64,000 nt of DNA. Origin: Bacillota bacterium (GTDB lineage Bacteria; Sysuimicrobiota; Sysuimicrobiia; Sysuimicrobiales; Segetimicrobiaceae). The translations under genes were made by a program, and so were the position numbers. Location of the stretch: assembly GCA_021324295.1 (NCBI GenBank), contig JAJPJJ010000082.1, forward strand, positions 96,316 through 160,315. Direction: 5' to 3'. Below are positions 1 to 11,069 of this stretch, piece by piece. The stretch's first letter is position 1. Every line of letters begins with the position of its first letter. The notes below the pieces were generated by a model. That model was not told the origin of the DNA. It saw only the letters and a program-made list of their open reading frames with translations, and did no database searches.

Positions 1-942
1 CTCCCGCAGCAGCTCGTCCCACGCGAGCCGCTCGCGGGCGGGATCGACCAGCGGCCTCACGCGCTCGCACCCCTCCGCCAGCGCCCGGTAGAAGGCCGCA
101 TCCGTCTCCGCGCGCCGCAGCAGCTCGGCGAGCGCGCCGGTGTCCTCGACCGGGAAGTACCCGGGATACTCGGCGCCCAGGATCCCCATCGAGCCGGGGA
201 TCCGCGAGGCGAGCACGGGCACGCCGGAGGCGATCGCCTCGGAGAGCGCGTTTGCGCCGCCCTCCGTGCGCGAGCTGAGGACGAGGAGCCGGCTGCCCGC
301 GAGGATGCGCAGCGCCCGCCAGCGCGGGCGCTCGCCGAGCCAGCGATAGCGGGGGTTGTCGGCCTGCTCGGCGAGGGCCTCCCGCTCCATCTCGGGGCTC
401 AGCGCGGCTCCCAGGTGCACGATGCGGATCCGGGAGGAGGCGGGGAGCATCCGGGCCGCCCGCGCCGCGCGCAGCGGGTCCTTGACCGGCCGCAGGTGCG
501 CGAGGACGCACACGTCGAAGGTGCCCGCCCGCGGCGCCCGCGCGCCCGGCGGCGGCGTGGCGGACTGGTAGATCACCCTGGCCTTGTCGTGCAGGTGCGC
601 CGGGAGCTGCGCGATGCCCAGCGGCTGCAGCAGCACGAGCCGGGAGGCCATCTCCAGGGCCTGCTGCGCGAGCGGGTCGGTGTCCAGGTCCCCGTAGAGA
701 TCGGTGCCGGTCAGGACCACGACGAGCGGCCCGCCGGGGTGCCGGTCGCGGTAGCGCGCCGCGGATGAGAAGCTGCGCCGCGCGTGGAGCGCCACCAGCA
801 GGTCGCAGCGGTCGTCGCGGTACTCCTCGCGGACGGCGACCCGGTGCCCGAGCGCCCGGAGGATGCGCGTCCACCGGATCGCGGTGACCCGGTTGCCGCT
901 GCGCGAGCCGGGCGGGGCCGGCGTGATCAGGCAGACGCGCAT
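1..942 (-). CDS. senB: Selenosugar synthase SenB (TIGR04348-type glycosyltransferase), 3' end runs off the window
   Basis: Manual translation from ATG at 942 (absent from the ORF track because it is open at the edge): MRVCLITPAPPGSRSGNRVTAIRW...ALHARRS...LTGTDLY...HLRPVKDP...SSRTEGGANALSEA. These are SenB/GT-B motifs. The gene lies directly downstream of senA. Confidence 0.9.
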   Translation of the reverse strand, partial: MRVCLITPAPPGSRSGNRVTAIRWTRILRALGHRVAVREEYRDDRCDLLVALHARRSFSSAARYRDRHPGGPLVVVLTGTDLYGDLDTDPLAQQALEMASRLVLLQPLGIAQLPAHLHDKARVIYQSATPPPGARAPRAGTFDVCVLAHLRPVKDPLRAARAARMLPASSRIRIVHLGAALSPEMEREALAEQADNPRYRWLGERPRWRALRILAGSRLLVLSSRTEGGANALSEAIASGVPVLASRIPGSMGILGAEYPGYFPVEDTGALAELLRRAETDAAFYRALAEGCERVRPLVDPARERLAWDELLRE

Positions 943-1005
943 CTCAGCGGCGCTACGCTGCCCGGCACCCCGCGGCCGCGCCCGAGACAGAGACCCACCG
1001 GTCCT

Positions 1006-2370
1006 TCAGCCGCCCGCCCTGCAGGTGCGGAATCCCGCCAGCACGTCGCGCCGGTCCGGCGTGAAGTAGTTGCGCCAGGTGTTGCGCAGCATCCGCGAGC
1101 GCGTCGCCCAGCAGCCCCCGCGCAGGACCTTCCGCGTCCCGAACCAGGGCTCGGAATACTCCTTGTACGGATCCGGGGTGAAGCCCGGATAGGGCAGGAA
1201 CGTGCTGCTCGTCCACTCCCAGACGTTGCCGATCATCTGCCGGCATCCGAACGCGCTGTCGCCCGCGGGAAGGGCGCCGACATCCAGACAGCCCATGGCC
1301 TGCCAGTCCAGGTTCGCGCGCCGCGGCGTCGGGGGCTCGTTCCCCCACGGGAAGCGCCGCTTCGCACCGGACAGCCGTGCGCCGCCCGGCCCCGGATCCG
1401 ACGCCGCGGCGGCTTCCCACTCCGCCTCCGTCGGCAGCCGGCGGCCCGCCCACCGGCAGTAGGCGTCCGCCTCGTACCAGTTGACGTGAATGACCGGGCG
1501 GTGCGGCTCGAGCGCGCGCCACTCGTCGAAATCCCGGCGCAGCCAGGCGCCGGCGTCGCGCCGCCAGTACACCGGATGCTCCGCGCGGGCCTGCTCGCGC
1601 CACGCCCACCCGTCCTCGCTCCACAGCTCACGCCGCCGATAGCCGCCGTCGTCCACGAACGCCGCGAACTCGGCCTGGGTGACGGGCGCGCGCGCGATCG
1701 CAAACGGCCCCACCTCCACCGGGTGCGCCCACTTCTCGTTGTCGAAGACGAACGGCTCGTCCGGCGTGGCGCCCAGCGCGAGCGTGCCGCCCGGCACCTC
1801 CACGTCGCCCGGGAGCGGCCCACCACCGGCCGCGCCCCGGGGATCGCGCTGTCCGAGCTCCCGCGCCGGGGCGTCCGATCCGGCGCCGGTGCGAAACAGG
1901 CGCGGCGCGGGATACGCCAGCGTCTGCCGCGTGTAGGTGAACGCCTCCGTGTGCATATCCTCGTGGAACACCGTGTAGAGGACGTGGTACGCCAGCTCCG
2001 GACCCGGCGCGCCACGGGCGAGCACCTCGCACACGCGGTCCCGCACCGCGCGCATGTAGGCCAGGGTCTCCTCGCGGGACGGCAGCGGCAGGTCCCATCG
2101 CGCGTCGTGCGGCACCGCCATCGAGTCGTACAGCGCGTCCGCATCGGCGCGGATCGGTTGCTCGCCGCACACGTGCCGCAGGACCCACTTCTCCTGGAAC
2201 CACGCCATGTGCCCGATCTCCCAGAGCATCGGGTTGACGATCGAGAGGCGCGGCCCCATCAGTTGCTCGTCGGTGAGATCGGCGACCAGCTCAAACGTGC
2301 GCTCGCGAGCATCCCGCACGTACTCGGCCAGGTCCTGCGCGGTCACGGTGGCATCGAGGGGGAGGACCAT
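1006..2370 (-). CDS. senA: Selenoneine synthase SenA (EgtB-like DinB plus FGE-sulfatase non-heme iron enzyme)
   Basis: NPMLWEIGHMAWFQEKW, iron motif HEDMHTE (HxxxHxE), FGE domain RLPTEAEWE, GNVWEWT, RGGCW, AGFRTC; adjacent to senB; GGAGG RBS upstream. Confidence 0.9.
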   Translation of the reverse strand: MVLPLDATVTAQDLAEYVRDARERTFELVADLTDEQLMGPRLSIVNPMLWEIGHMAWFQEKWVLRHVCGEQPIRADADALYDSMAVPHDARWDLPLPSREETLAYMRAVRDRVCEVLARGAPGPELAYHVLYTVFHEDMHTEAFTYTRQTLAYPAPRLFRTGAGSDAPARELGQRDPRGAAGGGPLPGDVEVPGGTLALGATPDEPFVFDNEKWAHPVEVGPFAIARAPVTQAEFAAFVDDGGYRRRELWSEDGWAWREQARAEHPVYWRRDAGAWLRRDFDEWRALEPHRPVIHVNWYEADAYCRWAGRRLPTEAEWEAAAASDPGPGGARLSGAKRRFPWGNEPPTPRRANLDWQAMGCLDVGALPAGDSAFGCRQMIGNVWEWTSSTFLPYPGFTPDPYKEYSEPWFGTRKVLRGGCWATRSRMLRNTWRNYFTPDRRDVLAGFRTCRAGG

Positions 2371-2741
2371 CAGCGACCTCCTAGGGGAGCGCTCGGCCGG
2401 GGCCGCGGGCAGTCCGCGGGCCTCCTGGACGAAAACGCTGGAGGCTTAGGCGGCGTCCGGCGGCACTCCTTCCCGGCCCACCCGGTGGGCGCCGCGGGGA
2501 GGAGCGCTGCTCCACCGCGATGCCCGGGCCGCGCGCGCGGTCCCCGGGGACGCGCCCGTTCCCATCCGTCCCGCGCCCGGGATCGCTCGCAGGGGACGAA
2601 GGACGCCGGCTGCAATGCCCGGCGGAGGCCGGACATCGCGCTGCACGCACGCCAGCACGCCATCGCGCCGGGTCTGGCAGCGGGTGCGGAGGGGCAGGGC
2701 CGGCCCGGGCGCCCGTCCGGGGTCCGGCGCACGGTGGACCC

Positions 2742-3824
2742 CTACAGGCCGAACGCGTGCGCGAGCAGCCCCGCGAGCAGCCCGGTGGCCGCGGTCAGGC
2801 CGCCCAGGAGCGCGAGCACGCGCACGGGGAGCACGCGCGCGAGCATGAGCAGAGACGGCAGGCTCACCGGCGCGAGCGTCAGCAGCAGGACGCCGGCCGG
2901 ACCGGCCCCCACCCCGGCCGCCAGCATCGTCTGGATGATCGGGATCTCGCCCGCCGTGGGAATGACGAAGAGCGTCCCCAGGACCGCGAGCGCCGCGAGG
3001 ACGAGGGGATCGCCGCCCAGGTGCAGGCCGCCGGATGGGAAGAAGAACGCGCGCGCCGCCCCCAGCAGCGCAACCATCACGATGTACTCGGGCGTGAGGC
3101 GCACCGCGAGTCGCAGCAGGCTGCGCAGCCAGCTGGACGCCCCAGGCTGTTCTCCCGCCTCCGCGGCGGTCCGCGGCGGAACCTCAGGCGCGGCGGCGTC
3201 CGGGGCGTTCCGGCCCGTCTGCGCGACGAGGCGGGATGCCAGGAGGGCGCCGCCGAGGACGAGCGCGACGCCCAGCGCCACCCGCAGGGCCGCCCAGGGC
3301 CAGCCGAGCGTCAGCACGATGAAGGCCAGGACGGCGGGATTCAGCGTGGGGTTCCCCAGCCACAGCGCTGCCGTGCTGCCGATCGAGGCTCCCTTCTTCC
3401 GGAGGCTCACGGCCACCGGTGCGGCGCAGCACGTTCACATCATGCCCGGCAGCGCGAGCACGCCGCCGAGCACGGACGAGCGCAGGGTCCCGCTGCAGAG
3501 CACACGGGTCAGCCAGTCGCGGGGGAGCAGCGTCTCGATCGTGGCGGCCAGCAGCAACCCGAGCACCCACGCCTGCCACACCGACTTGAAGTAGCTCTGC
3601 GCGTACTGGATGGCGGCAGCCACCGATGGCGAGGGCGCCGCGACGCCGGTGCTGAAGACGATGTTGCTGCCGATCGAGTGCCGGACGGCCGCGGCGAGGG
3701 CCCGGTGGAAATACGGGTTCCACTTGACGATGAACAGCCCTAGGACCGCGATCGCGAGCAGGACGCCGAGGCCGCGCAGGTGTTCCGGAAGCCGGCCCGG
3801 TGCCGTCGCCGCTCGATCTTCCAT
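2742..3824 (-). CDS. YraQ/DUF318-family permease with an in-frame TGA at codon 130, putative selenoprotein (360 aa if read through)
   Basis: ORFs 3435..4145 and 2742..3416 are in the same frame, separated only by TGA at 3435-3437. Joined they read ...VKWNPYF...YFKSVWQAWVLGLL...LALPGMM*TCCAAPVAVSLRKKGASIGSTAALWLGNPTLNPA...FVIPTAGEIPIIQ..., matching the YraQ pattern LPGMMCTCCAAPV. Confidence 0.85.
3399..3419 (-). promoter_or_regulatory. Candidate bacterial SECIS element
   Basis: mRNA +16..+36 after the UGA is CCGG-U-GGC-[CGUGA]-GCC-U-CCGG: two stems, a U-U mismatch, and an apical loop starting at +24 with G in position 2. Folded by eye only. Confidence 0.55.
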
Positions 3825-3881
3825 ACTCAGCCTGTCCCCCTGCCCTCCGCACGGGCGCGCCGGAAGCACCGCCCGCGCTCC

Positions 3882-3940
3882 CTTGAGCAAACCATACCGA
3901 GTTGGTATGCTACGCTCAAGCGTCCTACCGATTCGGTATG
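3882..3940. promoter_or_regulatory. Twin LysR-type operator (T-N11-A palindromes) between the permease and the LysR gene
   Basis: CATACC-GAGTT-GGTATG (3893-3909), flanked symmetrically by CTTGAGC/GCTCAAG, and TACCGA-T-TCGGTA (3926-3938); centres 31 bp apart. Confidence 0.7.
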
Positions 3941-3969
3941 TCCCTCGGACGCACCGAGGGGATCGCCAG

Positions 3970-4884
3970 ATGGAGGAGCCGAGCGAGCTCCAGGCGTTTC
4001 TGCGCGTGGCCGCCTGCGGCAGCCTGACCGCCGCGGCCCGGGAGCTCGGCCTCACCCAGCCCGGCCTGAGCCGCCAGATGCAGAAGCTGGAGCGGCGGCT
4101 CCAGGTGTCCCTCTTCGCGCGGACCCCCGCCGGCGTCACCCTCACGCCGGCGGGCGAGCGGTTCCGGGCCTACGCCGAGGAACTGCTGGCACGTCACCGG
4201 CAGCTGCTCGACGAGCTGCGCGGGACGGAGGCCGGCCTCGCGGGCACGCTGCGCGTGGCGGCCAGCACGACGCCGGGAGAGTTCCTCGTGCCGCGGCTCG
4301 TCGCGGAGTTCACCGGACGCCACCCGGACGTGCGGCCGGTCGTCTTCACCGCCGACTCCGAAGAGGTCACGAGCGAGCTGCTCGAGCGACGCTGGGACGT
4401 GGGCTTCGTCGGCGCGCGGATCAAGCGGGACGGGCTGCGCTTCGATCCGGTGGCGGACGACGAGATCGTCCTCGCCGTGCCGGCGCACCACCCGCTGGCC
4501 CCGGCGGCGGAGGTCCCGCTCGGGGCGCTCGCCGGTCAGCGCTTCGTGGACCGAGAAGGCGGCTCCGGCACCCTGCTGAGCGTCCGCCGCGCGCTGGCCG
4601 AGCGCGGGCTCCAGCTTCCACCGTACCGGGTGAGCATGACGCTTACCACGACGCAGGCGATCGTGTCGGCGGTGCGGGCCGGCTACGGGATCGGGTTCGT
4701 GTCCTCGATGGCGCTCGCGGATCGCCCAGATGGGCGCGTCGTGGGGGTGCGCCTCGCGGGCGTCCCGCTGCGCCGCACGCTCTACATGGTGCGCGAGAAG
4801 CGGCGGGTCCTCTCCCCCGTCGCGCGCCGCTTTGCCGAGTTCGTCCTCGCTCGGTCCGCGCCGCCGGGCCGGCCGTCGCGCTGA
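3970..4884 (+). CDS. LysR family regulator, CysL-like / selenium-metabolism-associated type
   Basis: HTH GSLTAAARELGLTQPGLSRQMQKLE; substrate domain AASTTPGEFLVP, REGGSGT, AVRAGYGIGFVS; divergent from the TGA-containing permease. Confidence 0.88.
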   Translation: MEEPSELQAFLRVAACGSLTAAARELGLTQPGLSRQMQKLERRLQVSLFARTPAGVTLTPAGERFRAYAEELLARHRQLLDELRGTEAGLAGTLRVAASTTPGEFLVPRLVAEFTGRHPDVRPVVFTADSEEVTSELLERRWDVGFVGARIKRDGLRFDPVADDEIVLAVPAHHPLAPAAEVPLGALAGQRFVDREGGSGTLLSVRRALAERGLQLPPYRVSMTLTTTQAIVSAVRAGYGIGFVSSMALADRPDGRVVGVRLAGVPLRRTLYMVREKRRVLSPVARRFAEFVLARSAPPGRPSR

Positions 4885-4942
4885 TCGCCCGCGCTTTTGC
4901 GCGCACGAGCGCGGCGTCACCGGGGCGCCCGCGCCGCCAGTG

Positions 4943-4956
4943 TATAATGGCTGGCG
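4943..4956 (+). promoter_or_regulatory. Perfect -10 TATAAT placed for a leaderless start at GTG 4956
   Basis: TATAAT at 4943-4948, in-frame GTG at 4956, no Shine-Dalgarno sequence visible. Confidence 0.5.
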
Positions 4957-5711
4957 TGGACCAGCATGCGGTGCCGGCGATCGCCGTCGAACAGCTCACC
5001 AAAGCATTCGGCCGGCTCGTGGTCGTGGACGACATCTCGTTCTCGGTTGCCCCGGGGGAGATCGTCGGGTTCCTCGGCCCGAACGGGGCCGGCAAGACCA
5101 CCACGCTCGCGATGCTGCTCGGGCTGCTGCGGCCGACGCGCGGCCGTGTGCGGGTCCTCGGCCTTCCGATGCCGCAGGCGCGCCAGCGGGTCCTCGCGCG
5201 CGTGAACTTCACGTCGCCCTACGTGTCGCTGCCCGGCAACCTCAGCGTGCGCGAGAACCTCACGGTGTTCGCCCGCCTCTACGGCGTGCGCAACGCGCGG
5301 TCGCGGATGGAGGGGCTGCTCGCCCGGTTCGGCCTCGCCGGGATGGAGGGCCGCACCACCGGCCGCCTCTCCTCGGGAGAGAGCACGCGGCTCGGGCTCG
5401 TCAAGGCGCTGCTCAACGATCCGCAGGTCCTGTTCCTCGACGAGCCGACGGCCAGCCTGGATCCGGACGGCGCGGAGCGCGTGCGCGAGATCCTGCGGCA
5501 GATCCGCGCGGAGCGCGGCATGACGATCTTCTACACCTCGCACAACATGCAGGAGGTCGAGCGGTTGAGCGACCGGATTCTCTTCCTCCATCGCGGCCGT
5601 GTGATCGCCGAGGGACCGCCCCGCGACGTGCTCCGGCGGTTCGAGCGCGACACGCTCGAGCGCATGTTCCTCGACCTCGCCCGCGAGGGCCAGGAGGTGA
5701 GCGCCCCGTGA
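4956..5711 (+). CDS. ABC-2 type exporter ATP-binding protein (alternative start ATG 4947)
   Basis: Walker A GPNGAGKTT, signature LSSGE, Walker B FLDEPT, H-loop SHNM. Confidence 0.9.
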   Translation: MDQHAVPAIAVEQLTKAFGRLVVVDDISFSVAPGEIVGFLGPNGAGKTTTLAMLLGLLRPTRGRVRVLGLPMPQARQRVLARVNFTSPYVSLPGNLSVRENLTVFARLYGVRNARSRMEGLLARFGLAGMEGRTTGRLSSGESTRLGLVKALLNDPQVLFLDEPTASLDPDGAERVREILRQIRAERGMTIFYTSHNMQEVERLSDRILFLHRGRVIAEGPPRDVLRRFERDTLERMFLDLAREGQEVSAP

Positions 5712-6574
5712 GCGCCGTGCGCGCGGCCGCTCCGGGGCCGACCTCCCCGGTCCCGCCGGCGGAGATCGCGCTGCGGCCCGGGATCAGCGCCGGCCGGATC
5801 GTGGCGCTCCTCCTCCGGCAGCTCTTCCTGTACCGGCGGAGTATGATCCGGTCGCTGGAGATCATCTACTGGCCGGTCCTGGACCTCCTCGTCTGGGGCT
5901 TCCTCAGCGTCTACGTGGCCCGGCTCCGCGGGGGCGCCGGCGTCGCGGTGGCGTTTCTCATCGGCGGGATGATCCTGTGGGACATCTTCTTCCGGGTCCA
6001 GCAGGCGATCTCGGTGTCGTTCCTGGAGGACGTGTGGACGCGAAATCTGGTCAACGTGTTCGTGAGCCCGATCAGCACGGTCGAGTTTCTGCTGGCGACG
6101 ATGCTGCTGGGCGTGATGAAGATCGTGGTCATCGGGTTCCTGCTGGCCGCGCTCGCGCTGGCGCTGTACGCGTTCAACATCTTCCAGTATGGGCTGGGCC
6201 TCCTGCCGTTCGTCCTCAACCTGATCCTCGCGGCGTGGGGGATGGGGATCATCACGACGGCGCTGATCCTCCGCTTCGGGCAGGGCGCCGAGGCGCTGGC
6301 GTGGGCGCTGGCGTTCCTGTTCCAGCCGTTCTCCGCGGTGTTCTACCCCGTGGCGGTCCTCCCGCCCGCGCTGCAGGCTGCCGCCTGGATCCTGCCGACG
6401 ACGCACGCGTTCGAGGGGATGCGGGCGGTCCTGGCCGGGCGCGCGGTCCCGTGGGCGCACGTCGGGTGGGCGGCTGTGGAGAACGCGGTGCTGCTGGGCC
6501 TGGCCGCCGCGGTCTTCGCCTGGGTGATGCGGATCGCCCGCGAGACCGGGCTGCTGCTGCGGACCGAGGGGTAG
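5708..6574 (+). CDS. ABC-2 type exporter permease
   Basis: Six hydrophobic segments, FSAVFYPVAVLP...ILPTTHAFEGMR; GTGA overlap with the ATPase stop. Confidence 0.88.
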   Translation: MSAVRAAAPGPTSPVPPAEIALRPGISAGRIVALLLRQLFLYRRSMIRSLEIIYWPVLDLLVWGFLSVYVARLRGGAGVAVAFLIGGMILWDIFFRVQQAISVSFLEDVWTRNLVNVFVSPISTVEFLLATMLLGVMKIVVIGFLLAALALALYAFNIFQYGLGLLPFVLNLILAAWGMGIITTALILRFGQGAEALAWALAFLFQPFSAVFYPVAVLPPALQAAAWILPTTHAFEGMRAVLAGRAVPWAHVGWAAVENAVLLGLAAAVFAWVMRIARETGLLLRTEG

Positions 6575-6750
6575 CCAGCCACGTCCGCGATCGCCGCACC
6601 CAGCGCCGGCGCAAGCGGCTCCTCCGGCGACGGACGCGTCCGGACGCGGGCTTCCGATTTGACTGTGCGCAGGGAAGCCCGGGGATGCGCCGAATGTCCT
6701 TGCGCGGGCTTGCGGCGACGGCGTCCGCCGGGGGTGCCCGAGGCGAAGCT

Positions 6751-8412
6751 GTGCTGACGGTCAGGCAGGCGTTGGAGCTCGACGTGCTCCGGGACGTGAA
6801 GGTCGTCGCGGGCGGCGCCGGCCTCGACCTGCAGATTCGCTGGTGTCACATCATCGATAACCCGGAGATTGTCCAGTGGATCCAGGGCGGCGAGTTGCTC
6901 CTGACCACGGGGTATGGCTGGCCGGAGGTCGAGCAGACGAGCCGCCGCACCATCCGGGCGCTCAACGCGAAGAGGCTGGCGGCGATTCTCTTCGACCCTG
7001 GTCCGTTCCTCGGCGAGATTCCGGCCAATGTTGTAGACGAAGCGGCCCGTCTCTCGCTGCCAGTCCTCGTCGCTCCACGCAAACTGCGGTTTGCCGACGT
7101 CACGGAGGCCGTCGGGCGGGAGCTGATCCGGCGGCAATACGAAATGATCGAACGCGCCGACCGCTATCATCGTCAGATCACCGCGGCAGCGGTGGAGGCG
7201 CGGGATCTCAACGATATCGCCCGGACGGTCTCGCGGTTGACGCGCCGCTCCGTCACGATCGAGGATGCGGACTGCCGGCCGCTCGCGCACGCCGATGGCG
7301 GGCAGGGGCCCGCCGCCGCGCAGGCGGCGGGCGGGCCTGCCTCCGGCTCCGTACCGGCGCTCCGCAGCTGCCGCGCCGCGGAGACCGTCCGCGAGCGTCT
7401 GCGCAGCACCGACGGCGCCATGCGGCTGGCCGGCCGCGCGGCCTGCGCGATCCGGGCCGGCAGCGAGTTGCTCGGGTATCTGTGGATCCTGGAGGGCGCA
7501 GCACCTCTCGGCGATCTGGAACTGCGTGTTGCGGAGCACGGTTCTATGGTCGCCGCCTTGCACATTCTGCGACAGCGGTCGCAAGCGGCGGTTGAGGCGA
7601 GAATCGGTCACACCGTCGTCGACGCGCTGATCCGCGGAGACGTGCCGGAGGAAGACCTGATCGAGCGGGCGCGGCTGCTTGGGTACGACCCGGGGGACCG
7701 CTATGCCGTGATGATCGTCTCGCTCGCGGACCGCGCGGGACGCAGCCGGAAGTGGCCGCTCAGCACCCGGGAGGAATACTACCGGCGCGAGCGCGCCTCG
7801 CAGATCGTGCGCCGGCTGCTCGGACAAGAGCGGCTTCCCGTTCTGTCCACCTACTCGCTCAACCGTATCGTCTGTCTGCTCCCCGTCGGACGGATGACGG
7901 GGAGCGACGGGCTGCGCCGGTTTGCGCGTCTCGTGCACGAGCATCTTCACGGAGCGGGCGGCGTGGCGCCGCTGCTGATCGCGGTAGGGAGCGCCCACGC
8001 CGGGTTGTCGGGCGTTGCCAAGGCGTATTGGGAAGCCGACCGTGCGATCGGCATGGCGAAGGGGACCGATCGTGTCTTGTTCTTCGAGGATCTGACGCTC
8101 GCGCATCTCTTGGCGCAGATCTCCGACTCCGCATCCCTGCAGGCCGCGTATGTCCGGACCCTCGGCGAGGTGCTGGCCGGTCCGGATGGCCGCGCCGTGC
8201 GCGAAACGCTGTGGGCCCTTGTTGACTCGGGATTCAATCGGGAGGCCGCGGCGGCGGCGTTGGGCATTCACCGGAACACCATTCGGGCCCGTATCCAGCG
8301 AGCGCAGGCCTTGCTTGGCCGGTCCCTGGACGAACCGGCGATCCGTCGTGATCTCGCGGTCATGAAGGAGATCGAACATCTGTTGGATACCGCGGCCCGT
8401 CCTGCGACTTAG
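6751..8412 (+). CDS. PucR/CdaR family transcriptional regulator (start approximate)
   Basis: N-terminal PucR domain VVAGGAGLD...WIQGGELLLTTG; C-terminal HTH AAAALGIHRNTIRARI. Confidence 0.88.
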   Translation: MLTVRQALELDVLRDVKVVAGGAGLDLQIRWCHIIDNPEIVQWIQGGELLLTTGYGWPEVEQTSRRTIRALNAKRLAAILFDPGPFLGEIPANVVDEAARLSLPVLVAPRKLRFADVTEAVGRELIRRQYEMIERADRYHRQITAAAVEARDLNDIARTVSRLTRRSVTIEDADCRPLAHADGGQGPAAAQAAGGPASGSVPALRSCRAAETVRERLRSTDGAMRLAGRAACAIRAGSELLGYLWILEGAAPLGDLELRVAEHGSMVAALHILRQRSQAAVEARIGHTVVDALIRGDVPEEDLIERARLLGYDPGDRYAVMIVSLADRAGRSRKWPLSTREEYYRRERASQIVRRLLGQERLPVLSTYSLNRIVCLLPVGRMTGSDGLRRFARLVHEHLHGAGGVAPLLIAVGSAHAGLSGVAKAYWEADRAIGMAKGTDRVLFFEDLTLAHLLAQISDSASLQAAYVRTLGEVLAGPDGRAVRETLWALVDSGFNREAAAAALGIHRNTIRARIQRAQALLGRSLDEPAIRRDLAVMKEIEHLLDTAARPAT

Positions 8413-8542: not shown

Positions 8543-9676
8543 ATGCTGCGAAGCGCCCGGAGGTCGGTCGCGACGTTCGAGCCGGTAGGGCGGCTGGCGC
8601 TGCCCGGCGGCGGCCAGATCGTCGTGGAGGGGCCGTACGCGTATGTGGGACACATGGCGCCACCCCACGGCACATCGATTCTCGACGTTGCGGATCCCGC
8701 CCAGCCCCGCGTGCTCGCGCAGCTGCGCGTGCCGGACGACATCCATTCGCACAAGGTGAGGGTCGCCGATGACCTGATGCTCGTGAACTACGAGCGGTAC
8801 CCCGAAGGCGACCGCACCCGCGCCCCCGATGTGGGGCTCAAAGTTTTCGATGTCATCGACCGGCGCCGGCCGCGCGAGATCGCGTTCTTCCGCACCACCG
8901 GCCGGGGCGTGCATCGCTTCGACCTCCGCGGCACACATGCGTTCCTCTCCACCGAGTGGCCTGGATTCCGGTCGAACATCCTCCTGATCGTCGACTTCGC
9001 AAACCCGGTGCATCCCGCAGTGGCGGGGCACTGGTCCTTTCCCGGTCAAGAGGCGTCCGCATCCTGTGAACCGCTGCCGGCTGACCACTGGGTGCATCTC
9101 GCCCTCGCTCGCGGCGACCGCGTGTACGCAGCGTGCGGCCACGCCGGCGTGATGATCGTGGACATCTCGGATCTCCAACGCCCGCGCACCGTGGGCGGGA
9201 TCGCGTGGGATCCGCCCTACACGGCGCCGACCCACACGTTTCTCCCCGTGCCGCATCCGATTCGGAACCGGCGGTTTGCCGTCGTCACGGACGAAGACGT
9301 GACGGACGATGTGCTCGAGGATCCGCCGGCATTCATGTGGGTGCTGGACATCACGAACGAGCGGCGGCCAGTTCCTGTGGCAACCTATCATGTCGATCCG
9401 GCTGGCCTCGCCGTGCCGGGACAGCGGTTCGGGGCGCATCAGCCGTGGGAGCACATTCGCGAGGACAACATCGTCTTCGTCGCTTGGTTCAGCGGGGGGG
9501 TGCGAGCGGTCGATATCTCCGATCCCTACCGGCCCCGCGAGGTGGCCGCCTACGTCCCGCCCCCGGGACGGGGACGGCCGGTCGCGCAGACCAACGATGT
9601 GTTCGTGGATCGCCGGGGGCTCGTCTATGCCATCGACCGGCACGAGGGGCTGACCGTGCTCGAATTTCATCGCTAG
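8543..9676 (+). CDS. LVIVD-repeat beta-propeller protein, His-rich
   Basis: Repeated motifs SILDVADPAQP, LIVDFANPVHP, MIVDISDLQRP, RAVDISDPYRPRE; His motifs HSHK, GVHR, PTHT, FGAHQ; no signal peptide evident. Confidence 0.8.
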   Translation: MLRSARRSVATFEPVGRLALPGGGQIVVEGPYAYVGHMAPPHGTSILDVADPAQPRVLAQLRVPDDIHSHKVRVADDLMLVNYERYPEGDRTRAPDVGLKVFDVIDRRRPREIAFFRTTGRGVHRFDLRGTHAFLSTEWPGFRSNILLIVDFANPVHPAVAGHWSFPGQEASASCEPLPADHWVHLALARGDRVYAACGHAGVMIVDISDLQRPRTVGGIAWDPPYTAPTHTFLPVPHPIRNRRFAVVTDEDVTDDVLEDPPAFMWVLDITNERRPVPVATYHVDPAGLAVPGQRFGAHQPWEHIREDNIVFVAWFSGGVRAVDISDPYRPREVAAYVPPPGRGRPVAQTNDVFVDRRGLVYAIDRHEGLTVLEFHR

Positions 9677-9752
9677 GGGAACCGGCTTCCGACCGTGCGT
9701 TCCACCGGGGGCGCGTGGCGGGCGCTCAACGTGTGACGAGGAGGGGGAGCCT

Positions 9753-11069
9753 ATGCTGCGTTGCGGCCGTCTTGCAGCCGGAGCCGTCGCGGTCCTGGCA
9801 ATCTCTTTCGTTGTGGGGCTTCCGCGGGGAGCCGACGTTTCGCCGGCCGCTGCGGCGGTCGCCGGCTGGGTGCTACCCACCGGACCGGTCACGCTCACCG
9901 AATGGGACGGCGGCGACGGCACGAAGTCGGCGTTGTTGCGCGAGTTGATCGCAGACTACGAGAAACTCCATCCGAACGTCAAGGTCAACTTCGAGACCGA
10001 CGTGAAATCGCTGAAGGTCGCCGCGGCGATCGCCGCGGGCACGGCGCCCGAGATCTTCGAGGCCTCGGACGCGAACCTTCAGAAGTACATCGCCGCCAAG
10101 GCGGTGGAGCCACTCCCGCCGGCGGCCTGGGGGCAGTCGAGCGTTGACGGCGTCCTTGCACTCTACCTGCCCCACGTCCTGGACGCCGTGACCGCGGGCC
10201 ACAGCCTGTACGCGGTGCCGGACCAGCTGAACGCGCACAGCCTGTACATCAACAACCGGATGTTCCGCGCCGCCGGTCTCGATCCGGCAAAGGGTGCGCC
10301 GAAGACCTGGGACGACGTGGCGCGTCTCAACAAAATCCTCACGAAGAAGCAGGGCGACCGGGTCACGCAGAAGGGTTTCGAATTTCGCTACATCTGCGAC
10401 GACGGGCACTGGCAGGCGCACGTCTTCCATATCCTCGTCTACCAGGCCGGCGGCGACGTCATCAAAGACGGCAAGCCGGTGTTCAACAGCGAGGCGGGCC
10501 TGAAGGCCCTTACGACCTGGAAGTCGCTCGTCGTGGCGCCCGCCGTGACCTCGAACACCTGCTCATCCCCGTACCAGGACTTCGCCGTCGAGCAGGACGC
10601 GATGACCTTCGCCGGCCCGCACGTCGGCAAGATCGTCGAGCAGATCAACCCGGCAATGAAGGGAAATTACACCGTCGTGCCCCTGCCCCAGATGCGGCCC
10701 GATCACCCCGCCACGCTCATCTACTCGTTCAATTGGACCGTCAACGCGCGAGCCTCGGCGGCCCAGAAACGCGTGGCGTGGGACCTCATCCACTTCATGA
10801 GTTCGAAACCCGAGATGTGGTGGCAGCGCATTCAATTCCTGCAGGGCACCCGGGGCTGGCTCACGATGCCGGTGGCGCGCAACACACCGTTCATGTCCGC
10901 CTTCACGCACGATCTGTCCGTCGGCCGGCCGCTGGGACGCACGACCTACTACGCCGACCTTCAGACGATCATCGCGCGGATGGTGGATCGCGTGATCCTG
11001 AAGGACGTGGACCCGAAGACCGCGCTCGCCGAAGCATCGGACGAGTTCACCAGGGCGATCTCTAAGTAG
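9753..11069 (+). CDS. Carbohydrate-type (CUT1) ABC transporter substrate-binding protein 1
   Basis: Signal peptide; YEKLHPNVKV, LYAVP, LYINNRMFRAAGLDP...PKTWDD. Confidence 0.88.
   Translation: MLRCGRLAAGAVAVLAISFVVGLPRGADVSPAAAAVAGWVLPTGPVTLTEWDGGDGTKSALLRELIADYEKLHPNVKVNFETDVKSLKVAAAIAAGTAPEIFEASDANLQKYIAAKAVEPLPPAAWGQSSVDGVLALYLPHVLDAVTAGHSLYAVPDQLNAHSLYINNRMFRAAGLDPAKGAPKTWDDVARLNKILTKKQGDRVTQKGFEFRYICDDGHWQAHVFHILVYQAGGDVIKDGKPVFNSEAGLKALTTWKSLVVAPAVTSNTCSSPYQDFAVEQDAMTFAGPHVGKIVEQINPAMKGNYTVVPLPQMRPDHPATLIYSFNWTVNARASAAQKRVAWDLIHFMSSKPEMWWQRIQFLQGTRGWLTMPVARNTPFMSAFTHDLSVGRPLGRTTYYADLQTIIARMVDRVILKDVDPKTALAEASDEFTRAISK

Follow-up and report, generated by a model that had tools for sequence, protein, structure and literature searches.

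Does a TGA codon inside a permease gene end the protein or is it read as selenocysteine (Sec), and what might a Sec-containing permease carry when it lies next to genes for selenoneine synthesis? This question is raised by a locus of a Bacillota bacterium in which a permease gene with an in-frame TGA is followed by the selenoneine genes senA and senB and faces a divergent gene for a LysR-family regulator. The locus lies in a window of 64 kb, the whole stretch of DNA that we analyzed (64,000 nucleotides (nt) of contig JAJPJJ010000082.1, assembly GCA_021324295.1). We suggest, at a probability of roughly 0.55, that the gene encodes a full-length selenoprotein permease that carries selenium species, probably inward, towards SelD. 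The evidence comes from the reading frame, the recurrence of TGA at the same codon in other genomes, a hairpin just 3' of this codon and the genes that accompany the family.

A Permease Gene with an In-Frame TGA

The permease coding sequence occupies 2742..3824 on the minus strand and consists of 360 codons and a TAG stop, an assignment based on the single frame, the Pfam score and the third-position G+C content on both sides of the TGA. When TGA was translated as Sec (U), one frame of 360 residues ran from the ATG at 3824 to the TAG at 2742-2744 with 0 other stops, and U was residue 130. The TGA of this proposed Sec130 is at 3435..3437 (minus strand), where the codons read CCG GGC ATG ATG TGA ACG TGC TGC GCC GCA CCG GTG, and the same codon is TGA in other genomes and in metagenome loci. 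The third-position G+C content was 0.87-1.0 on either side, indicating that coding runs on through the TGA. A preliminary description of this DNA, made from the letters alone, had stated that a single TGA at codon 130 splits the gene and that the two intact halves add up to a protein of normal length; reading and translating the frame confirmed both points. It had also expected that gene callers would split the gene, and the halves are indeed on record as P0122 (129 amino acids, on 10 contigs) and P0002 (224 amino acids, on 7 contigs).

The TGA is not an assembly error. The stretch was found in contigs from three studies with no listed change at the TGA. The contig X6 is an independent source, and the contigs X1 and X2, with 0 other letters, may be the source of this DNA. 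Further, the TGA is not unique to this genome, as described below.

We aligned the permease, with U read as cysteine (Cys), with 14 full-length relatives. P126, M128, M129, C130, C132 and C133 were invariant and G127 was nearly so. Because C130 is invariant in this 15-row alignment, the TGA stands at a conserved Cys position, as had been claimed. As a sample of loci with the Cys form of the permease we used the best 80 loci from genome_contigs; codon 130 was TGY in 80 of these 80.

Sec Machinery and Recurrence of TGA at Codon 130

The source genome (4.0 Mb in 129 contigs; 96% complete, 4.7% contamination) contains one tRNA-Sec (72.6 bits; anticodon tca according to ARAGORN), the weaker Rfam matches being tRNA-Ser. 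It also contains selA, selB (357 bits) and selD (393 bits; of the Sec type, with TGA in VACAG-U-ASK), so that tRNA-Sec, selA, selB and selD are all present. Genome-wide use of TGA as a sense codon was considered and rejected, as Cys is the only residue to which TGA aligns and Sec machinery is present in the genome.

The SelD of this genome (G000:C90:137275-138198, locus L038) is a selenoprotein as well, its TGA lying within VACAG-U-ASKLSP, and most SelD matches listed from the Chloroflexota sample described below likewise carried one TGA. There are two selA/selB sets, at G000:C106:122441-125543 and G000:C42:40034-42869. The selA on C106 matches in two pieces in different frames, possibly owing to a frameshift; paralogy or the 4.7% contamination may explain the second set.

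We then compared codon 130 across genomes. Among 94 genomes of the source organism's own phylum, all in one order, there were 14 permease matches in 12 genomes. Five of the 14 had TGA at codon 130 (the source genome G000 and G019, G017, G011 and G002; four genera, 45-65% identity), six had Cys (MMCTCC, TGY) and three were distant homologues reading F-C-S-C-C. G011 and G017 each carried one Sec copy and one Cys copy. In a sample of 401 evenly drawn Chloroflexota genomes, 15 had the permease and 8 of these had TGA at codon 130, including a clade at 41% identity that reads FF-U-SCC. These tallies include genomes flagged as unpublished: G062 (partial SenA), G135 (a Cys-form fragment, with SelD and with no SenA over the cut-off) and G034, G241, G269, G323 and G368, the last five of which entered the selB, selD and SenA tallies only.

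A search of metagenomes with a TGA-containing DNA pattern gave at least 80 loci, and the Sec-form metagenome counts here rest on the matches listed. Among the 80 matches listed, 75 continued past the TGA as permease (44-66% identity) and 5 were chance matches. TGA is kept at one codon across more than 85 sequences at 41-100% identity. Further, 51 of 76 short database homologues stop precisely at ...P[GS]MM, which is where a gene caller that takes the Sec codon for a stop would end them. In a quick maximum-likelihood tree of 97 rows, Sec and Cys forms were interleaved, with at least 8 changes between them, 4 of which were forced by well-supported branches; the Sec:Cys proportions in this tree are meaningless because rows of each form were gathered differently.

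A Hairpin Just 3' of the UGA

An 8-bp hairpin, GCCCCAGU-GGC-ACUGGGGC, is found in most Sec forms; its first base lies 15 nt after the U of UGA (+15..+33). In the Sec forms, 92.2% of 408 cells of this hairpin were paired (51 distinct sequences). Both sides of a pair had changed in 21 cells, at 3 pairs, and 0 of 500 shuffles matched this result. When the partner strand was slid along, pairing in the Sec forms fell to 35-62%. Several of the stem-preserving swaps alter the protein, from V-A-L to L-A-V, P-A-V or L-A-E. In the equivalent columns of 85 Cys forms, 50.9% of cells were paired, which was no better than the slid controls. The Chloroflexota Sec forms have other compensating stems, for example CCCGGU/ACCGGG versus GCCAGU/ACUGGC, with a GGUC loop. 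Besides the pair counts, z-scores of folding were the sole measure that separated the forms (Sec -1.74 versus Cys -0.31). As judged from these alignments, the predicted hairpin just 3' of the UGA is specific to the Sec forms of the family.

In the window gene, the candidate Sec insertion sequence (SECIS) lies at 3399..3419 on the minus strand (+18..+38 after the U) and was present in both the minimum free energy and the centroid folds. Its arms are CCGG-U-GGC(C) and (G)GCC-U-CCGG and its loop is CGUGA. No Rfam family was found anywhere in the 64-kb window. This variant occurs in five sequences only (the window gene, G019, L147, L163 and L165); it is a minority form with little covariation of its own, and its energy is ordinary for its G+C content (-14.1 kcal/mol, z +0.74 versus shuffles). 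Moreover, the two forms could not be told apart by the raw energy with which the 36 nt following the codon fold (means, Sec -16.7 versus Cys -17.6 kcal/mol, p = 0.08); the G+C content of that set of stretches was 82% in Cys forms versus 72% in Sec forms. These points weigh against the Sec reading. The SECIS evidence is thus weak for the window gene itself, and its Sec case rests on the family.

The split calls P0122 and P0002 and the unremarkable energy of the window hairpin would fit a TGA that is a true stop, leaving a pseudogene or two small proteins of 129 and about 224 amino acids, or, in a variant of this explanation, a UGA that acts as a selenium-sensing brake on senA and senB. We regard this explanation as very improbable. 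The TGA is kept over the range of identities given above with both halves conserved and coding-like, all full-length relatives have Cys at codon 130, and the covarying hairpin is limited to TGA forms. The 371-nt spacer before senA speaks against tight translational coupling in this genome. In our assessment it is highly probable that UGA-130 is read as Sec and that the permease is a real selenoprotein, as the preliminary description had proposed; the Sec machinery, the recurrence of TGA versus Cys, the Sec-specific hairpin and the co-occurrence with SenA described below all support that proposal, and none of the refuting findings that the description had named was encountered.

Family and Predicted Structure of the Permease

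The permease matched Pfam PF03773 (ArsP_1) at 87.3 bits, above the cut-off of 32.3, and belongs to that family. Its best, though weak, NCBIfam match was SaoE (NF040736; 53.3 bits versus a cut-off of 325), and it scored 47 bits on SO_0444 (NF033936; cut-off 300), so that it falls into neither. Relatives were also below these cut-offs (36-52 bits for Cys forms on the SO_0444 model and 32-57 bits on the SaoE model), and none of the six family members scanned reached the cut-off of any NCBIfam model. Two motifs characterize the family. The U-T-C-C of residues 130-133 (3426..3437, minus strand), identified from the alignment and the structural model, corresponds to the family's invariant C-[TS]-C-C. 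The second invariant motif, FVIPTAGEIPI of residues 286-296 (2937..2969, minus strand), has F286-E293, P295 and I296 invariant, and FVIPTAGE was common to the query and the 14 full-length relatives. On these sequence features, the predicted permease is a member of an unnamed ArsP_1 subfamily with the motifs PGMM-[C/U]-[TS]-CC and FVIPTAGE, and is neither SO_0444 nor SaoE.

We modeled the protein with AlphaFold2 from the 15-row alignment (mean predicted local distance difference test score (pLDDT) 77, predicted template modeling score 0.81). In the model, helices 114-127 and 131-143 are separated by a break at 128-130 (M128, M129 and U130), and this block has a pLDDT of 84-91. A second break at 287-290, between helices 273-286 and 291-302, holds the second invariant motif. 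Paired helix breaks are typical substrate sites in secondary transporters. Placed at a membrane-helix break in the model, the U-T-C-C is likely to be the substrate site of a secondary transporter.

A sequence search found no relative in the PDB, and Foldseek gave no structural match at E<=1e-3. The top matches of VIA-align were elevator-type ion transporters, all below the tool's caution level for helical proteins: Pho90 (Z 10.7; 8r33_A, root-mean-square deviation (rmsd) 6.1, 274 residues aligned), ArsB (Z 9.7; 10tp_A, rmsd 6.5, 272 aligned) and INDY/DASS (Z 8.4-8.6), with TRAP also among the top matches. As this list mixes importers and exporters, the fold matches give no direction of transport.

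Linkage of the Subfamily to selD and mnmH

Fifty-five of the best 80 Cys-form loci had mnmH (44 loci) and/or selD (26 loci) within 6 kb. This linkage was found in 8/8 loci of Gammaproteobacteria, 39/53 of Betaproteobacteria, 3/4 of Alphaproteobacteria and 4/6 of Bacilli; elsewhere the counts were 1/3 in unclassified Bacillota, 0/3 in Chloroflexota, 0/2 in Actinomycetota and 0/1 for an Eremiobacterota-labelled record. In Burkholderia anthina, for example, the Cys-form permease directly follows mnmH (tRNA 2-selenouridine synthase, selU; 562 bits) and a LysR gene. The gene orders varied among the Cys-form loci (L049-L128): LysR-mnmH-permease was seen in Burkholderia and selD-mnmH-permease in Paraburkholderia, and selD was divergent from the permease in Dyella, Luteibacter and Hyphomicrobium.

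Among the metagenomic Sec forms listed, six had selD directly upstream, and in G147 and G129 selD lies within or near the selenoneine (sen) loci. No universal partner was found among the neighbours of 80 Sec-form loci. The largest recurrent sets, of 6 loci each, were those of selD, senA, senB and an open reading frame (ORF) antisense to selD. The preliminary description had linked the permease to senA and senB. This linkage was seen, as set out in the next section, and the link proved to be wider than had been claimed, since Cys forms lie beside selD or mnmH. The whole subfamily, in its Cys and Sec forms, looks tied to selenium use on the basis of these neighbourhoods.

A different substrate could be suggested by the low NCBIfam scores, of which the best were for SaoE (53 bits) and SO_0444 (47 bits), and by the CxC/UxC motif, a metal-type motif discussed for both of those families. 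The permease would then be a selenoprotein that handles a soft metal or metalloid (Cu, Zn, Hg or As), with Sec as the better ligand and the selenium-related neighbours coincidental. Some neighbours of Cys forms are indeed unrelated to selenium (aldo-keto reductase, glyoxalase, DoxD-like and radical SAM genes). On the other hand, the selD/mnmH linkage recurs in four bacterial classes and the sen linkage in at least four separate clades of the tree. Further, the match to SenA is patchy yet exact within two genera (g5, 1/6 genomes; g6, 2/7), and no ars, mer or cop genes were seen beside the permease in the window. We consider a metal substrate improbable.

Linkage to Selenoneine Genes

In the window, the permease gene is followed on the minus strand by senA, encoding selenoneine synthase (1006..2370; NF041186, 533 bits, cut-off 420; DinB_2 and FGE-sulfatase domains), and senB, encoding selenosugar synthase (1..1005; TIGR04348, 398 bits, cut-off 300), the last codons of which are past the window edge. 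SenA and SenB are both over their cut-offs and adjacent, as in a sen gene cluster. Directly after senB and just outside the window is egtD (G000:C63:95306-96220, or 8991-9905 of locus L037, minus strand; TIGR03438, 380 bits, cut-off 291), which is followed by a class V aminotransferase gene (L037 7731-8972) whose weak best matches include PhnW and EgtE-like lyases. The order of the cluster is permease, senA, senB, egtD and possibly the aminotransferase, with a LysR_Se-like gene divergent from it. No selD or senC adjoins the sen cluster, and the only selD of the genome over the cut-off is on contig C90.

Among the 94 genomes of the source phylum, SenA was over the cut-off in G000, G002, G019 and G017, and G011 had it in two halves located at the ends of contigs. 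The SenA carriers were exactly the five Sec-permease genomes, plus a partial match in the fragmented, unpublished G062, which has no permease. Because selB was found in 85 of the 94 genomes, the match between SenA and the permease is not merely a trait of Sec-using organisms. SenA and the Sec form were patchy within genera and occurred in the same genomes (1/6 in g5 and 2/7 in g6). The order permease-senA-senB was found in G000, G017 and G011 and was not found in G019 or G002.

In Chloroflexota, SenA was over the cut-off in 4 of the 8 Sec-permease genomes versus 3 of the 393 others (Fisher p = 2e-6, for relatives that are not independent). By comparison, SenA was over the cut-off in 0 of the 13 genomes with only a Cys form. 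Thus, the co-occurrence check that had been proposed, of TGA forms with senA and senB, gave SenA in 5/5 Sec-permease genomes of the source phylum, 4/8 in Chloroflexota and 0/13 in the Cys-only genomes. Other gene orders were senA-senB-permease (G147 and L162) and a permease divergent from LysR-senA-senB (G129), so that the permease is found with sen genes in three different arrangements. In G159 a senB fragment abuts the permease at a contig end.

One of these loci, L213 (G129:C1:22788-35837), has the Sec-permease with the divergent LysR-senA-senB on one side; on the other side are a gene resembling egtB (SenA model, 362 bits, under the cut-off) and, at a greater distance, selD. L213 thus brings together genes of the ergothioneine and selenoneine types.

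Biosynthetic clusters often include an exporter of their product. The tight linkage of the permease to senA-senB in three gene orders and the co-occurrence of SenA with the Sec form only could accordingly be read in favor of a selenoprotein permease that exports selenoneine, a selenosugar or surplus reactive selenium, with the Sec codon limiting synthesis of the pump to times of plentiful selenium. Efflux is the function described for the characterized or named relatives, and ArsB, an arsenite efflux pump, is among the top VIA-align matches (Z 9.7). We judge export to be unlikely, with a real weight that it keeps because the named superfamily relatives are described in this way. Cys forms lie beside selD/mnmH in 55/80 loci and have sen genes within 6 kb in 0/80, where selenoneine export would have no obvious role; Sec forms occur in G099, G124 and G148 with no SenA match there; and the top fold matches also include importers (Pho90, DASS/INDY and TRAP).

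Proposed Function

The family is tied to enzymes that share only a need for selenium, and for this reason we favor uptake and delivery to SelD over export of selenoneine. In the mechanism we propose, UGA-130 would be decoded as Sec with the aid of the hairpin just 3' of it, and the U-T-C-C cluster at the membrane-helix break would form the substrate site. A thiol-reactive selenium species, for example selenite or selenide as an S/Se-Se-S adduct, would be imported and passed to SelD. SelD would then supply SenB and SenA, as well as the synthesis of Sec and selenouridine. At the locus described here, the permease would serve selenoneine synthesis under the LysR_Se-like regulator. The frame, the conservation, the hairpin, the Sec machinery and the gene linkage were observed directly in the sequences; what is carried, in which direction, and its transfer to SelD are our inference from them.

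Several observations weigh against this proposal. Export is the described function of the characterized superfamily members. The presence of selD in 14 of the 15 Chloroflexota genomes with the permease says little, because selD is in 298 of all 401. Burkholderiaceae, closely related to one another, make up 53 of the 80 loci in the Cys-form sample from which the selD/mnmH linkage was counted. Regarding the sen genes, 4 of the 8 Chloroflexota Sec-permease genomes have no SenA over the cut-off, 3 of the 7 Chloroflexota SenA genomes have no permease, and three Sec genomes of the clade at 41% identity have no SenA. Either senA or senB was seen in only 4 of the 75 listed metagenomic Sec loci, many of which are on short contigs; at least 1.5 kb of flank was available beyond the gene end in 26/75 and before the gene start in 28/75. 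An independent-pairs test of Sec state versus sen adjacency had only four contrasts and was underpowered (p = 0.5). In the window itself, the LysR protein is below the cut-off of its best model (231 versus 250 bits), and the 371-nt spacer between the permease and senA makes an operon only putative.

A wider version of the uptake proposal is attractive, and we put it forward tentatively, as possible and short of probable. The PGMM-[C/U]-x-CC family may be a dedicated prokaryotic selenium uptake system, in which the Cys/Sec triad at a helix break would catch selenium as a covalent S/Se-Se adduct for the Sec/Cys loop of SelD. In selenoneine producers, the first Cys would repeatedly have been replaced by Sec and the gene brought into sen clusters controlled by a regulator of the LysR_Se type. 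If this were true, the Sec codon would also couple synthesis of the transporter to the selenium supply, and the need of producers for bulk selenium for selenoneine would be a reason for the repeated switch from Cys to Sec.

The Regulator and Other Features of the Window

The gene for the LysR-family regulator is at 3970..4884 on the plus strand (HTH_1 and LysR_substrate domains). The best of 50 LysR models was NF040786, which is associated with selenium metabolism, with the bit score given above. Relatives of this regulator at 59-67% identity adjoin the Sec-permease in L212 and L213. The divergent intergenic region (3825..3969, 145 nt) contains, on inspection of the sequence, two 15-nt palindromic boxes, TACCGAGTTGGTATG and TACCGATTCGGTATG, at 3895-3909 and 3926-3940, 31 nt apart. 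These boxes may be LysR operator sites. A search of 21 related loci did not find them.

The GC-rich spacer of 371 nt (2371..2741, minus strand) runs from the permease stop to the senA start, an ATG at 2370 with AGGAGG upstream. It contains hairpin-prone stretches and has neither an Rfam match nor a T-rich terminator. In G017 and L182 the corresponding genes almost abut. No promoter or terminator pattern was found in 2300-4100.

Two long overlapping ORFs occupy 4730-8412 of the plus strand. The first (4730-6574) has an ABC-2 membrane domain at residues 370-568, and the second (5977-8412) encodes a PucR-type regulator. An ORF with LVIVD repeats (8543-9676; Pfam PF08309) and a gene for the binding protein of a sugar-type ABC transporter (9753-11069) follow; both are unrelated to the permease finding. 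Profile scans of the window found no ars, mer, cop or SAO genes among the neighbours.

Significance and Comparison with Known Systems

These results describe what is very probably an unannotated selenoprotein family. Public annotation truncates its members at the Sec codon, and two short NCBI records are named 'hypothetical protein'. A family that is frequent in soil metagenomes would thereby be added to gene calling and to surveys of selenoproteomes. According to the accessible parts of reviews of 2022 and 2026 and of a research paper of 2024, prokaryotes have no known dedicated (high-affinity) selenium transporter. With its linkage to selD, mnmH and sen genes in several phyla, the family is a candidate for this open question, and its Cys-form members in cultivable soil bacteria make the question testable by ordinary genetics. 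Further, a transporter and a regulator are added to selenoneine clusters, which bears on how producers obtain stoichiometric selenium.

The accessible literature contained no paper on Sec in this ArsP_1 subfamily or on its linkage to selD, mnmH or sen genes, and it gave no description of a permease selenoprotein linked to senA and senB, in agreement with the preliminary description, which knew of none. The words 'permease', 'COG0701' and 'DUF318' have 0 mentions in the accessible text of Lin et al. (2015), and 'permease' and 'transporter' have 0 in that of the BSepDB paper. The preliminary description had also mentioned related permease selenoproteins in SAO-type clusters. This was inexact: in the accessible text of Haft and Gwadz (bioRxiv 2022), SaoE is without Sec, and the related SO_0444 family has U-S-C members, in some of which Sec stands for the first Cys of a C-x-C motif. 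The accessible part of the 2026 review gives SO_0444 as 'UxC', names no other ArsP-type selenoprotein and lists a Sec-containing variant of YeeE/YedE. In the sources as far as accessible, SO_0444 and SaoE are described as efflux transporters and ArsP as a family of organoarsenical exporters.

The permease resembles SO_0444 (NF033936) in belonging to the PF03773 superfamily and in the place of Sec, which in SO_0444 is the first Cys of C-x-C and here gives U-T-C-C for C-T-C-C. The distant homologues in the source phylum align F-C-S-C-C to this U-T-C-C. As judged from alignment, U130 probably corresponds to the U of the SO_0444 U-S-C. Unlike SO_0444, the permease has PGMM-U-TCC and FVIPTAGE, and its neighbours are selenium genes (sen, selD, mnmH and LysR_Se-like genes) instead of metal genes. 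SaoE (NF040736) is likewise an ArsP-type permease with a conserved Cys motif; in contrast to the permease, the SaoE family as described in the accessible text has no selenoproteins, and the permease is below the SaoE cut-off with no SAO genes seen nearby.

In ArsP, a Cys pair in a membrane helix handles a thiophilic substrate. The organoarsenical exporter ArsP of the TCDB shares the Pfam family name with the permease, which differs, as judged from its gene neighbours and its motif, in having selenium genes instead of ars genes and Sec for Cys. YedE/YeeE, a candidate transporter of selenium or thiosulfate, is also a membrane protein with conserved pore Cys residues; the accessible text of Lin et al. 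(2015) ties it by comparative genomics to genomes with SelD and proposes that it transports selenium in a direction left undefined. It belongs to an unrelated family, PF04143.

Finally, the locus resembles the sen cluster (senA, senB and senC) of Kayrouz et al. in having senA and senB, both over their cut-offs, and then egtD. The preprint of Kayrouz et al. refers to 'a putative selenate transporter' near some sen clusters. In contrast to the described cluster, there is no adjacent senC here, and the transporter is a predicted Sec-containing permease of the ArsP_1 type.

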